64,000 bases of DNA from a virus (taxonomy: Duplodnaviria > Heunggongvirae > Uroviricota > Caudoviricetes), in the IMG/VR virus record IMGVR_UViG_2939521961_000004; one strand, 5' to 3'. Below, piece after piece: positions 30,001 through 36,000 of this stretch (positions are counted from its first letter, which is position 1; each line of letters starts with the position of its first letter). The position numbers are program-made.

Positions 30001-33000
30001 ACGCCGTGGCAGCACATATTTTATCTCGGAGGAGGGAAAGCGTTATCGCCGGGCTGTGGCGCTTATTGTTCGCCAGCAGCGGCTGAAATTAAGCCTGTCC
30101 GGAAGGCTGGCGATAAAGGTGATTGCAGAGCCACCGGATAAGCGCCGCCGTGACCTGGACAACATTCTGAAAGCACCGCTGGATGCGCTGACGCATGCGG
30201 AAGTGCTCATTGATGACGAGCAGTTTGATGAAATCAATATTGTGCGCGGTCAGCCAGTATCTGGTGGACGGCTGGGTGTGAAGATTTACAAAATTGAGAG
30301 TGAGTGAGCGTAAATATGATATATCCGGAAATTACAGGCAAAAGCGGCGAACATTTACGCCTGAACACGCTGGAAGCAGTCTGGATCCAGGGGAAATTAC
30401 GGATGTGGGGGCGGTGGTCGTATATCGGTGGGGGTAAATCCGGAAATATGTTTAACCGGTTACTGGTTTCGAAAAAGCTGACGAAAACAGCAGTTAATGA
30501 GGTTTTACGCAGCATGAAGAAATCCGGGCTGGAAAAACCGGAACTTGAGGCATTTTTTCGGGATATGACCAGAGGGAAGCAGAAGAGCTGGTTGTCACAT
30601 TGTACAGACACAGAGGCGTTGATTATTGATCGCGTTATCAGTGAGGTGCTTGGGGAATATCCCGGGCTAATCAATATTCTCCGGCAAAGGTACGAAGGAC
30701 GGGGAATGAGTAAGAGAAAAATGGCAGAATGTTTAAATCGTACTCACCCGGAATGGTGTTTCAGCACATGTGAGAAACGTATTGCAGGTTGGTTAGCCGT
30801 GGCTGAACACATGCTTTATGTACCTATGCACGATTCATTTCGATAAAAAAAGCTTGCTTTTTTACGCAGAAACAGCTTGAATTCCTGTAAGCTTCGCAAA
30901 GCTGTATCGCGAGGCGAAATGCAAGTTTTTTCGCACAAGGAAGCCACCGGAAGGTGGTTTTTTTGTGTCCGTAATATACAGCAGCGCAATAAATTCGCTG
31001 GTGGTTATTAATACCGTTCTTTCAGCTTGCTGGCTTTTTCGACAAGAGTTATTGGTGTGTCACGTTAACCGAAAAAGGGAAAAAGACATGCTGAAACAGC
31101 AGGATATGACCGAAACCGCCAGAGTGGTGTTTAATGAATTAAGCGTTACCGAACCGGCGACAGTCGGGGAGGTTGCGCAGAATACTTACCTTTCACGCGA
31201 ACGCTGCCAGTTAATACTGACCCAGCTTGTTATGGCGGGTCTGGCAGACTATCAGTGCGGTTGTTACAGACGCCTTCAGTCCTGAAGGCTTTTTATTTGT
31301 GGTGAATGGGCGGCTGGTGGGGGGGCGACACCTGTCAGTCCTTTGCTTATGTGTTGATGATAATTTACCTTTTGGGGCTATAATTGAGCTAACCAATTGC
31401 TAATGAAAGTAAAATTATAATGGCTGTTGTCTGTTCAGTTATCATGGTTTGCTCCCCAATTAATATTTTTCTTGAAAAGGATACGTTGTCACTTAAGCCA
31501 GGCTCAGTCGTTCTGGCCACCAAATGCATCAGGGAGCTTTTCCTTATGCATTATGGCAAAGTTAAAATTGTCGATATAAGCGAATCCGTCGTAAGTCAAT
31601 ATCTGGAAAGTCAGCATAAGCTGACGAGGACTCGTCTGACTGACATTCCGCTTTACCTGTTGCTGGAACCCAACAATCCTGCGTTGGCTGCGGCTTTAAT
31701 TACCAGCCAGGGATTTTCCGGAGAGGCCACGGATATGTTTCTTATGATGGCCTGCCTGTCTCTGTTTGAAACAGATGAACGGATGTCATTGTTTTTAAGT
31801 GGATGTTTATCCAGCATAAGTGCCAAAGTCAGGGCGATAATTCAGACAGATATATCAGCAAGCTGGACGCTTGGTGCGATTGCTCTACAGTTGCATATGA
31901 GTGAGAGTTTGTTAAAGACAAAACTGAAAAATGAAGGGGGCATGTTCAGTCGCTTGTTGCTGGAAGAGCGGATGCGTGTTGCTGTAAATATGTTATGTTC
32001 CCGGCATGGATATGGACAGGCTATAGCAGAAAAATGCGGTTATTCAAGCAGGTCCTACTTTATTTCTGTATTTCACCGCTATTATGGCTTCCCGCCAGAC
32101 AGATATGTATCCAGGCAAGGGCTTGATTATTGATTTTCATCTGATTATTATTTTTTGGCTCGGCCCTTTAGCTCAGTGGTGAGAGCGAGCGACTCATAAT
32201 CGCCAGGTCGCTGGTTCAAATCCAGCAAGGGCCACCATATCACATACCGCCATTAGCTCATCGGGACAGAGCGCCAGCCTTCGAAGCTGGCTGCGCGGGG
32301 TTCAAGTCCCCGATGGCGGTCCATTATCAGCATCATGCGTTGTTAGCTCAGTCGGACAGAGCAATTGCCTTCTAAGCAATCGGTCAGTGGTTCGACTCCA
32401 CTACAACGCGCCACACTTATTTTCCAGGCTCGCTTCGGCGGGCCTTTTTTGTATCTGCGCCACGCCCGGCGCATATCAACCACAGAGCCTTTCGGGGGTG
32501 AGCTTACGGAGTGGTCAGTGTGACTTTCTCTGTGGGCAGATCGCTCCCGGGCGTTGGCTCACCCACCCAAAGGAACGTCACGATGTTTGGAATCTTCAAA
32601 AAGAAAACCCGCAGAGCGGCAGCGGAAATTAAAAAGTTTGAGAAACGCGATCTGGCACAGGCGGTGATTAACGCTGCATACCTGGTGGCCTATGCAGATG
32701 GTGAATGCGAGGCATCCGAGAAAGCGAAGATCGAACAGGTCTTACGTAATCAGCCTGCGTTGTCTGCGTTTACCTCGGAAATTAATGCGATTAGCGCAAC
32801 TATTATCGGTCAGCTGGATACCAATTTTAAAATTGGTCGTCGTGCCGCGTTACGCGAGATTGAGGATGTGAAACACGATACGCGTGAAGCGGAAGATGTG
32901 CTGGATGTGGCGGTGGCCATTGCGGAGGCAGACGGCGAAATTGAGCCGGAAGAGCGCAAGGTGCTGGAAGAGATTGCCGGTGTTCTGGGTCTTCGTCTGG

Positions 33001-36000
33001 AGAATCACCTGTGACGGTAAAACTGCGCCTGGCTGTGGCTGCACTCCTGCTGTTTCTGGTGGTGATGGTGGATTTCACCAGCAGAATCATGTCGGTGCTG
33101 GCGGATGGGGTGCTGGTCTGCGGCATTGTGGTATTGCTGTGGCCGGTGATAAAAAGAAACAGCCTGCATAATGCTTGATTTTTTTGTTTGCTGTTTATTA
33201 AAAACACTTCTGCATGGTGAATCCCCCTGTGCGGAGGGGCGATCAGCAACCAGGTATATGGGATAATCGCGGATTCAGGTGCTGATACTGAATTCACCGG
33301 GAGGCACCCGGCACCATGCTTTGCCACAAAAGTGTTGTTTCTGTTTTTCTCAAACTATCATCGTTATCCCTTTATTTCCGGCTGCGCATGGCGTGGCCTT
33401 TTTTTACGACCAGCCACTGGCAGATGGCCATCCTGTAATTTGATTCCGGTTCCGGCTTTTTAACTCTGTTCCTGTACACGGGAGAAATTCGATGTCGATT
33501 AAACATTATGATGTTGTCAGGGCGGCGTCGCCGTCAGACCTTGCGGAAAAGCTGACACAAAAACTGAAGGAGGGGTGGCAGCCATTTGGCAGCCCGGTGG
33601 CCATCACGCCTTATACTCTGATGCAGGCCATTGCGGCGGAAGGTGATGTCACCACACCTGTGTTGGTGAAGCCGTCGGATGGAGAAGGCACAGTAATCAG
33701 CGCCACCAGAGACCCGGAGTATTACTTTGTTGTGGTTCTGGCGGGGCAGTCAAACAGCATGGCATATGGTGAAGGCCTTCCGCTGCCGGAGACATATGAC
33801 CGTCCGGACCCGCGCATTAAGCAGCTGGCGCGTCGCAGTACGGTGACACCGGGCGGTGTCGCCTGTAAATATAACGACATCATTCCGGCGGACCATTGTC
33901 TGCATGATGTGCAGGACATGAGCCGCCTTAACCATCCGAAAGCGGACCTGTCAAAGGGGCAGTACGGAACCGTGGGGCAAGGGCTGCATATCGCCAAAAA
34001 ATTGCTGCCGTTTATACCGGCGAATGCGGGCATTCTGCTGGTTCCGTGCTGTCGTGGTGGTTCAGCGTTCACCACCGGAGCCGATGGCACATACAGTGAC
34101 GCGAGTGGTGCCTCGGAGAATTCAACCCGCTGGGGTGTGGACAAGCCGCTGTATAAGGACCTTATCGGTCGAACAAAAGCAGCACTGAAGAAGAATCCGA
34201 AAAATGTGCTGTTTGCCGTGGTGTGGATGCAGGGGGAATTTGATTTTGGCGGTACGCCGGCAAATCACGCAGCACAGTTTGGTGCGCTGGTTGATAAATT
34301 CCGTGCAGACCTGGCGGATATGGCAGGTCAGTGCGTCGGTGGCTCTGCTGGCGGTGTTCCCTGGATATGTGGAGATACGACGTATTTCTGGAAGCAGAAG
34401 AACGAATCCACGTACCAGACGGTGTACGGCAGCTATAAAAACAAAACGGAAAAGAATATCCATTTCGTACCGTTCATGACCGATGAGAACGGGGTGAATG
34501 TGCCGACGAACAAACCGGAAGAAGACCCGGACATTCCGGGTATCGGATATTACGGTTCGAAATGGCGTGACAGCTCAGCCACCTGGACGTCACAGGACAG
34601 GGCGAGCCATTTCAGCGCCTGGGCACGCCGTGGGATTATTTCCGACCGTCTGGCAACGGCGATTTTGCGCCATGCGGGAAGAGTGGCGCTAAACGCGGGG
34701 GCATCATCGACAGTATCAGAGGTGCGCCCTTCATCGCCTTCCGGTGCAGAAGCCACAGGCGTCACAACACTGCTCTCTTACCTTGCCAGCGAGTCAGAGG
34801 GAAGCCTGAAAGTACAGGGATGGTCAGCCAGTGGCGGCAGGGCAGAAGTGGTCAGCGATGCGGAGGGAACCGGAGGTAAGGCAGTGAAGCTGACCAAGGA
34901 GGCCGGTAAAAGCAGCTGGGTGCTGGAGTACGCCGCGGGCAACGGTGCGGCTCTGTTACAGAAAGGGGGGCAGATTCGCTGCCGCTTTAAGGTTTCGGGA
35001 GCGCTGGCTGCGAACCAGTATGTTATGGCGTTTTACTGGCCGGTCTCTTCACTGCCACAGGGCGTTGCCCTGACCGGAGACGGGGGGAATAACCTGCTGG
35101 CAGCGTTCTACATCCAGACAGATGCAAAAGACCTGAATGTGATGTACCACAATGCGAAAGTGGCGACAAACAACCTGAAACTGGGAACCTTTGGCGCATT
35201 TGATAACGAATGGCATACGCTGGCTTTCCGCTTTGCCGGGAATAACAGCCTTCAGGTGACGCCGGTTATTGATGGTCAGGATGGCACACCGTTCACGCTG
35301 ACGCAGTCACCGGTCAGTGCATTTGCGGCGGATAAACTGCATGTGACAGACATTACCAGGAATGCGACTTACCCGGTACTGATAGACAGCATTGCGGTGG
35401 AAGTGAACAGCACAGACACTGCGGCATGATAAAAAAAACCGCCAGCGACAGGAATGGACGCTGGCGGTGGTGATACCTATGGAGAAAAAATAAAGGAACG
35501 ATACTTTCGTACTCTGGTTTTTAATGAAAACAGTTCTTATTGTCAACAATAACGGAAAGAAATTATGACATTTCTGAACCAGTTAATGCTGTACTTCTGT
35601 ACGGTGGTCTGTGTGCTGTATCTCCTTTCGGGTGGGTACAGGGCAGTGCGCGATTGCTGGCGCAGGCAGATTGACAAAAGGGCCGCTGAGAAAATCAGCG
35701 CCGGTCAGTCAGCCGGAAGCAAACCCGAAGAGCCGCTCATTTAGCGGCAACTTTCTTAATCACACCTTTCGACGAGAAAATCCCATGTCAGAAATTACAT
35801 CCCTGGTCACTGCTGAAGCAGTGAAGGAAGTCCTGCGCTCTGAAGAAGTCCGGAGCGCACTGAAACAGAAACTTCGCCATAACCTGGAAGCGCGTCTTGA
35901 TGCAGAAGTGGATGCCATTCTGGATGAACTGCTGGGCGCACCGGCAGCTCCGGAGCCGGAAGGCATCGCGGGTGAGGGGAGTGCTTCAGATAGCGGTGAC

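Follow-up and report, generated by a model that had tools for sequence, protein, structure and literature searches.

The phage gene pair tciA/tciB in the stx position of an Escherichia coli prophage, with a leader predicted to sequester the Shine-Dalgarno sequence

The late operon of a lambdoid prophage in IMG/VR record IMGVR_UViG_2939521961_000004, of which a stretch of 64,000 nucleotides (the window) was analysed, carries a gene for a TerB-family protein coupled to a gene for a small membrane protein at the place where Shiga toxin (Stx)-converting phages carry stxAB. By homology the two are the already known and named phage pair tciA/tciB. The initial annotation had taken them for an undescribed module that could not be assigned, and this does not stand, as the genes are named tciA and tciB in phage P1 and are annotated in RefSeq and PHROGs. 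What is new here is a survey of the membrane partners of TerB proteins across phages, together with a structured leader that is predicted to sequester the Shine-Dalgarno (SD) sequence of tciA. We propose, tentatively and with a confidence that falls somewhat short of an even chance, that the pair is a membrane-tethered, minimal Ter-type module which tunes the ionic or energetic state of the membrane during phage development.

The initial assignment of TciA to the TerB family was upheld by profile comparisons. The protein matched Pfam TerB (PF05099) over residues 26-138 with 60.2 bits against a cutoff of 24.4 (E=2.9e-16) and PHROG 632 ('tellurite resistance') over 143 of 143 positions (E=1.7e-69), and a profile of 34 homologues (alignment A2) found the solved Klebsiella pneumoniae TerB in the PDB (2JXU, E=1.3e-14; query 13-137 aligned to chain 19-144). 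Its AlphaFold2 model is all-helical, with eight helices (predicted local distance difference test score 88.3, predicted template modelling score 0.82), and the best Foldseek matches to it in the PDB were 2h5n (probability 1.0) and 2ou3, a 'tellurite resistance protein of COG3793' (0.90), with weak E-values of 0.015-0.6. The TerB domain is defined by a duplicated acidic D-G-x5-E motif; both copies in TciA, D39-G40...E46 and D117-G118...E124, are invariant or nearly so in alignment A2. Charge analysis separates a basic, amphipathic segment (residues 1-22, +9/-2) from an acidic remainder (-25/+12). TciA therefore shares with the TerB of the terZABCDE(F) operon the domain over nearly its full length, the all-helical TerB-like fold and the paired motifs. 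It differs in being phage-borne, as part of a lytic programme, and in standing alone: terZ, terA, terC, terD and terE were neither annotated nor found in the prophage. The partner differs as well, being a multi-pass TerC in the ter operon and a 55-amino-acid membrane hairpin without detected TerC homology at tciAB. A TerB-like domain at the cytoplasmic face of the inner membrane is also known from the N-terminal region of DjlA and from DUF533/YebE, although there the anchor is fused into one polypeptide, whereas at tciAB it is a separate, translationally coupled gene. TciA matched the DUF533 (23.9 bits) and DjlA (28.6 bits) models weakly and below their curated cutoffs, and membership of these families is not claimed.

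TciB matched Pfam DUF3927 with 62.3 bits (cutoff 25, E=4.3e-17) and PHROG 1470 ('TciB-like inhibition of cell division or resistance to colicin', E=4e-30). Hydropathy analysis gave two hydrophobic helices with basic termini, and in the family alignment (A6) an intramembrane Asp in the second helix, D32, is near-invariant. Read directly from the sequence, the tciA stop codon TGA (33012-33014) overlaps the tciB start codon GTG (33011-33013) as GTGA. The small, two-helix membrane protein described at initial annotation as translationally coupled to TerB was thus recovered, with the correction that the open reading frame (ORF) encodes 55 amino acids and not 54. This arrangement is conserved: tciB lies directly 3' of tciA in all 76 assessable intact tciA loci, with the GTGA overlap in 75 of them. 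In P1 the two genes share a one-base stop/start overlap (CTGATG), and in phage Pollock the start codon is directly adjacent to the stop (TAAATG).

TciA is 42% identical to its P1 homologue over the full length (tblastn), and TciB 58% identical over residues 21-51. The P1 genes are annotated tciA and tciB 'by homology', and explicit TciA/TciB annotation is found in phages JLK-2012 and 434. The names tciA, tciB and tciC of P1 are said to come from Lobocka and co-workers in 2004; our account of their origin is taken from P1 GenBank notes and later papers. The P1 pair likewise consists of a TerB-family protein of about 141-143 amino acids and a coupled DUF3927 two-helix protein, adjoins transfer RNA (tRNA) genes and belongs to a lytic-cycle operon. 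It differs in lying within the C1-controlled ban operon without a structured leader, whereas the pair in the window lies in a Q-dependent late operon with one, and in being followed by tciC. No tciC-like third gene follows tciB in the window, where a gene for an STnc100-family small RNA (sRNA) stands instead; as tciC is missing from most other non-P1 loci too, it does not define the pair. In the literature tciAB have been described as morons of the tRNA region for which an experimental test is still needed (PMC6799933) and have been placed in the variable region of P1-like phage-plasmids (PMC9603915). The P1 tciABC genes were non-essential in a CRISPR interference screen (PMC10695390), and tciA/B/C were among the differentially expressed phage transcripts during P1vir infection (bioRxiv 10.64898/2025.12.28.696737). 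Stand-alone phage TerB proteins have been discussed (PMC7824862; PMC3728262; PMC8421299; PMC6799933) and noted in Salmonella, Pseudomonas and Erwinia jumbo phages. Searched by tblastn, 50,697 phage records contained a TerB-like protein in 131 cases and the small protein in 34, and a library clustered at 50% identity held 533 representatives of the stand-alone TerB subfamily at E<=1e-3. Apart from lambdoid phages, carriers of the pair include P1/D6 phage-plasmids, N4-like virulent phages, jumbo phages and a P2/186-like prophage; at >=80% coverage, the whole cassette was detected in at least 646 of the 5426 complete E. coli genomes.

The pair is surrounded by genes for a Q-like DUF1133 protein, three tRNAs, a SASA/NanS-p esterase, a class II holin and a lysozyme, as initially described (Table 1). 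In BLASTN comparison with the Stx2-converting phage Stx2a_1447, the tRNAs and the terminator that follows them (window 32158-32461) were 94% identical. Past a gap, homology resumed with a piece at 33194-33318, which is part of the STnc100 gene, and was continuous, at 93%, from 33499 (nanS-p onward). This gap is where stx2A and stx2B sit in the Stx phage. As homology stops at 32461 and restarts at 33194 with stx2AB between, the segment 32462-33193, which comprises the leader, tciA and tciB, is a precise cassette replacement of stxAB, and the stx-equivalent position proposed for the pair was confirmed. The terminator 3' of the tRNAs is the left-hand limit of the cassette by which this prophage departs from Stx phages, and STnc100 is the right boundary common to them. 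The stxAB cassette of Stx-converting lambdoid phages thus occupies the same slot, 3' of ileZ-argN-argO and a terminator, 5' of an STnc100-like element and nanS-p, and on a Q-dependent late transcript; the cargo is unrelated, tciAB bringing an SD-sequestering leader and no toxin. The tRNA cluster (ileZ-argN-argO) is common to Stx phages. Of this interval, the conserved core of STnc100 is the part that is present in >2800 E. coli genomes and, downstream of stxB, in Stx phages. The chromosome of the bovine E. coli strain E2865 contains the window at 100% identity, and RefSeq there names the two products 'tellurite resistance TerB family protein' and 'DUF3927 family protein'.

Table 1. Features of the tciAB cassette and its borders in the window.
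Feature	Position	Strand	Basis
tRNA cluster: tRNA-Ile2 (CAT), tRNA-Arg (TCG), tRNA-Arg (TCT)	32162-32413	+	ARAGORN, Rfam, RefSeq
Intrinsic terminator-like hairpin GGCTCGC-TTCG-GCGGGCC with T-run, 3' of the tRNAs	32426-32451	+	terminator scan
Structured 5' leader of tciA	32457-32582	+	covariance model R1, RNAalifold
tciA, TerB-family ORF, 143 amino acids	32583-33014	+	Pfam, PHROG, NCBIfam scans
tciB, DUF3927 two-helix membrane ORF, 55 amino acids, GTG start	33011-33178	+	Pfam DUF3927, PHROG 1470, hydropathy
STnc100-family sRNA gene, directly 3' of tciB	33183-33355	+	Rfam RF02076, 104.7 bits (gathering 47), E=9.8e-23
Terminator-like hairpin with T-run, 5' of nanS-p	33380-33405	+	terminator scan

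A moron in the strict sense is expressed from the prophage, with a sigma-70 promoter of its own upstream and a terminator downstream. Two terminator-like hairpins, at 32426-32445 and 33380-33398 in the scan, flank the pair, and the first of them separates it from the tRNAs. A simple consensus scan found no sigma-70-like promoter between 32446 and 32582, and a promoter-like site just 5' of the tRNAs (32123-32151). On this arrangement tciAB would be reached only by Q-antiterminated transcription, and the Q-dependent late expression suggested initially is probably right.

The tciA leader, which is 126 nt long and unusually conserved, separates the terminator from the ATG. Consensus folding of 17 diverse sequences with RNAalifold paired an anti-SD element, CCUUU (32488-32492), with the SD sequence AAAGG (32569-32573) within a 16-base-pair long-range helix, and a helix CCACAGAG/CUCUGUGG crosses this long SD helix. 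Taken together, the long helix, the crossing helix and an inner helix had 94.5% of cells paired, against 40-54% in slid controls, and compensatory change was seen at 9 pairs as compared with 4.9 in shuffles, only 1 of 500 of which reached 9. Given this covariation, the leader is predicted to hide the ribosome-binding site; the two helices that cross may make up a pseudoknot or be alternative ON and OFF states. The covariance model (R1) scored the tciA leader at 141 bits. In two tciA allele groups, leader divergence was 0.048 and 0.124 as against 0.256 and 0.440 at tciA 4-fold sites, and between the groups the leader is 16% different and the proteins only 41% identical, both comparisons being biased by the ascertainment of the loci through a 16-nt leader match. 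The leader was also present at loci found independently by protein search, in Pantoea, Franconibacter, Pseudescherichia, Buttiauxella, jumbo Machinavirus phages and a contig with a 52%-identical TciA, and was not found at the P1, P2-like, N4-like and Pseudomonas tciAB or TerB loci. Rfam gave no match to the leader at E<=0.1, and at E<=10 only a chance-level match to mir-156 (14 bits, E=2.4), so that a known RNA, yybP-ykoY included, has no support from this search. A Pas sRNA was also considered as an identity for the leader and rejected; a preprint puts the Pas and STnc100 genes beside esterase and holin genes.

The leader does not belong to tciA in particular. A second, full copy was detected with the covariance model at 37001-37147 (+; 61 bits, E ~1e-13); this leader (37001-37135) runs up to the start codon (37136) of a gene for a P22_AR_N antirepressor-like protein, and in related contigs copies of the leader, and likewise of its 5' part, precede other late-region cargo. 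A tciA-specific untranslated region is thereby ruled out. As copies stand before the P22_AR_N gene and other late cargo, the leader is best described, from its distribution, as a reusable regulatory cassette for accessory genes and not as an element specific to tciAB.

The contexts in which the pair, or TerB with another partner, was found are varied, and each of them is, on sequence grounds, a lytic-cycle transcription unit. In the window, in JLK-2012 and in Klebsiella phage 5 LV-2017 the pair is part of the lambdoid late operon, with Q/tRNAs before it and the lysis genes after it; in 5 LV-2017 a Phage_holin_8 gene follows directly. In P1 it lies in the C1-repressed ban operon between tRNA genes (trnT, trnI), in a P2/186-like prophage in the early operon directly after fil (Phage_186_Fil), in the N4-like phages Pollock, Zuri and BUCT194 in the early/middle region, and in Machinavirus jumbo phages in the tRNA region. 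Proximity to phage tRNAs recurs, in P1, JLK-2012, 5 LV-2017, Machinavirus, a Franconibacter prophage and contig L145. A peptide-pattern scan of genome contigs, with narrow patterns, gave 9 loci.

A membrane-protein neighbour of TerB was present in 13 of 15 sampled phage lineages, and in 9 of the 15 this was a DUF3927-type two-helix protein immediately 3' of TerB. In the Pseudomonas phages AF and Zuri an unrelated single-pass protein of 67-73 amino acids, with a conserved motif (C..YG.QTERET.YA.FVGCMV), occupies the same coupled position; the AF ORF (locus L008, 1932-2153) has no annotation and again shares a GTGA with the stop codon of TerB, and its Zuri counterpart lies at 1943-2146 of locus L011. 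TerB adjoins a Na/Ca-exchanger-family protein (PF01699, E=1.4e-27) in Vibrio phage D491 (L009, 1501-3081), and in Vibrio phage BUCT194 (L148, 1-1626) a TerC/Alx-family protein (PF03741, E=3e-41) lies between two TerB genes. The recurrent pairing of TerB with a membrane protein, which twice belongs to a recognized cation-transporter family, is the strongest clue to mechanism.

Both genes are maintained in relatives of the window. The leader motif (16-nt match) retrieved 120 IMG/VR loci, 99 of them with a full-length reading; tciA was intact (140-143 amino acids) in 78 of the 99 and disrupted in 21. Pseudogenization across related prophages, or a TerB call that failed profile searches, had been named initially as grounds for discarding the proposal, and the relatives are mostly intact and the TerB profile matched. 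Fifteen of the 21 disrupted genes share one frameshift in a poly-A run at codons 6-8 (32598-32610; allele MFGIFGKKSPQSGNGN*). A G-run in the leader (32494-32498) varies among contigs as G5, G7 and up to G12, and this and the poly-A variation could reflect either slippage-prone tracts or sequencing error. Across alleles, the pooled ratio of non-synonymous to synonymous polymorphism (pN/pS) was 0.05-0.10 for tciA and 0.15-0.58 for tciB, and both genes are under purifying selection. The low pN/pS, together with the tciA-then-tciB order in 76 of 76 loci, argues that the ORFs are not chance ones.

We favour a membrane-tethered TerB module because phage TerB nearly always adjoins a membrane protein and always lies in lytic-cycle units. 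On such a model, Q-modified polymerase would read through the upstream terminator, so that tciAB would be made in induction and lytic growth and not in the lysogen, and the leader would further gate translation of the pair. TciB might then be the anchor or partner of TciA on the cytoplasmic side of the inner membrane, with the TerB domain of TciA binding a ligand or metal as the cytoplasmic subunit of a membrane partner that handles cations. The complex would adjust the cation or energy state of the membrane in phage development, as a non-essential fitness function, and this might show itself as tolerance of insults to the membrane, for example by pore-forming colicins or superinfecting phage. 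Several points weigh against this. No tciAB pair has a phenotype established by experiment, and the contact between TciA and TciB is a postulated one. TciB has no detectable homology to TerC, its being a TerC fragment having been ruled out by hhalign (probability 0.06%), and two apparent TerB-DUF3927 fusions (P0004 and P0066), which might have served as Rosetta-stone support, have out-of-frame linkers and are frameshift artefacts rather than true domain fusions. Two of the 15 sampled lineages (PMBT3 and phiM5) have no membrane neighbour of TerB. Phage 434 (L003, 3138-4370) carries, likewise between Q and the esterase, a TciB homologue but no TerB, so that TciB can occur on its own. Some expression in the lysogen may take place, as the scan for promoters is a crude one. 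Finally, tciA is disrupted in about 21% of loci and the function is therefore dispensable. The neighbours of TciB in phage 434 are a 247-amino-acid multi-pass membrane protein without a Pfam match and a membrane protein of 62 amino acids.

One alternative is that the pair is superinfection-exclusion or abortive-infection cargo, a miniature of the phage inhibition (Phi) and the resistance to pore-forming colicins (PacB) conferred by the terZABCDE operon, that would protect the lysogen or the infected cell from other phages. The idea was raised at initial annotation and is also a published hypothesis for phage Ter genes, as phage-borne Ter components, including the stand-alone TerB of Erwinia jumbo phages, have been proposed to serve in competition with superinfecting phages (Iyer et al., 2021; PMC7824862); the match of TciA to canonical TerB over its full length would fit, and the early expression contexts in P1, P2-like and N4-like phages would suit exclusion. 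We nevertheless consider it unlikely. Among the defence models of PADLOC-DB v2.0.0 the best match of TciA was to PDC-S48 (E=0.0035, 14.5 bits, 35 residues) and TciB had none, so that, of the profile searches suggested at initial annotation, those for TerB were positive and those against defence models gave nothing meaningful. Moreover, the lambdoid pair lies behind terminators in a late operon without a promoter-like site and is unlikely to protect a lysogen, and abortive infection makes little sense in the strictly virulent phages that carry the pair. The locus also has no terC, terD or terE, while Ter phenotypes reportedly need several ter genes (Whelan and colleagues, 1995 and 1997). A block or delay of cell division (filamentation), by which a host-takeover factor would enlarge the cell before lysis, is distinctly unlikely, although 'inhibition of cell division' is part of the tci name. 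In Yersinia pestis and E. coli, filamentous growth has been connected with the terZAB segment, but lethality, attributed to Whelan et al., lies in terZA, and filamentation was mapped to terZAB or terZABC as a block and not to terB alone (PMC4633105). The pair directly follows the Phage_186_Fil gene in the P2/186-like prophage and shares the ban operon of P1 with a dicF-like region, but such co-location with fil or dicF is confined to 2 of the roughly 6 types of context, and nothing in the protein points to contact with the divisome.

Another possibility is that phage TerB is a counter-defence decoy, titrating the membrane partner or ligand of host Ter islands or of TerB-domain defence systems, Shango among them. 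Islands with ter genes are frequent in Shiga toxin-producing E. coli (STEC) hosts, TciA is homologous to TerB over its full length, and both virulent and temperate phages carry it; there is, however, no direct evidence for a decoy, and the obligate pairing with a membrane partner of its own argues for an autonomous module, so that we hold this to be highly unlikely. TciB does resemble a holin in being small, with two transmembrane domains and a charged C-terminus, and the lambdoid and Klebsiella pairs lie just 5' of lysis genes, in 5 LV-2017 immediately before the holin gene, which might suggest a lysis-timing accessory made up of an antiholin-like or holin-modulating membrane protein and a cytoplasmic regulator. 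The pairs of P1 and of P2-like, N4-like and jumbo phages lie far from lysis genes in early regions, however, and the window has a separate class II holin, which makes such a role most improbable. That the pair is a genuine tellurite-resistance determinant is scarcely credible: only the family name and the TerB homology speak for it, terZ, terA, terC, terD and terE are all absent from the locus, and published comments on single phage terB genes agree (PMC8421299; PMC3728262).

A more specific form of the favoured membrane-tethered module can be envisaged, in which the leader would be a translational switch of a new class, responding to a ligand, an ion or temperature through two helices that are mutually exclusive or pseudoknotted and one of which conceals the SD sequence. 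It would control a minimal two-protein Ter module, with TciA regulating a cation-conducting TciB oligomer through the invariant intramembrane Asp. We regard this as very unlikely in its entirety; if true, tciAB would be the simplest tractable system in which to learn what TerB proteins do. To our knowledge, TerB and the Ter operon have been without a molecular mechanism for decades, and a two-gene phage version (TerB and a 55-amino-acid partner), selected in temperate, virulent and jumbo phages, offers a minimal system for approaching it. For STEC biology, the locus shows that the stx slot of the Q-dependent late transcript can take cargo in general, and that non-toxin cargo in this slot brings a putative translational control element of its own. 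Perhaps the leader, which occurs twice in this prophage, serves accessory genes of phage late operons generally as a regulatory cassette.

Some further features of the window were noted. A second swap relative to Stx2a_1447 lies upstream, between Q and the tRNAs, where a gene for an AraC-family regulator (31420-32133, +) takes the place of a DNA methylase gene. This regulator gave sub-threshold YdeO/GadX-like NCBIfam matches, belongs to PHROG 1450 and had no meaningful PADLOC match; we take it to resemble the prophage-encoded Psr/PatE regulators of the acid-resistance island of enterohaemorrhagic E. coli. Between nanS-p and a DUF1378 gene there is a weak, sub-threshold Esr41-like Rfam match (35431-35507, -; 29.5 bits against a gathering threshold of 102), near where the Pas sRNA preprint puts prophage sRNAs. 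The host prophage looks defective, with an integrase split by an IS3-family element and a frameshifted portal gene (12660-14991 and 44545-47129), and it carries toxin-antitoxin pairs of HigB-like (19691-20355) and RelE/ParD (27917-28479) type. The left end of the window (1-12363) is the tail region of a neighbouring lambdoid prophage that ends in type III effector cargo, namely an EspF-repeat protein (11104-11856) and an EspV remnant (12181-12363).

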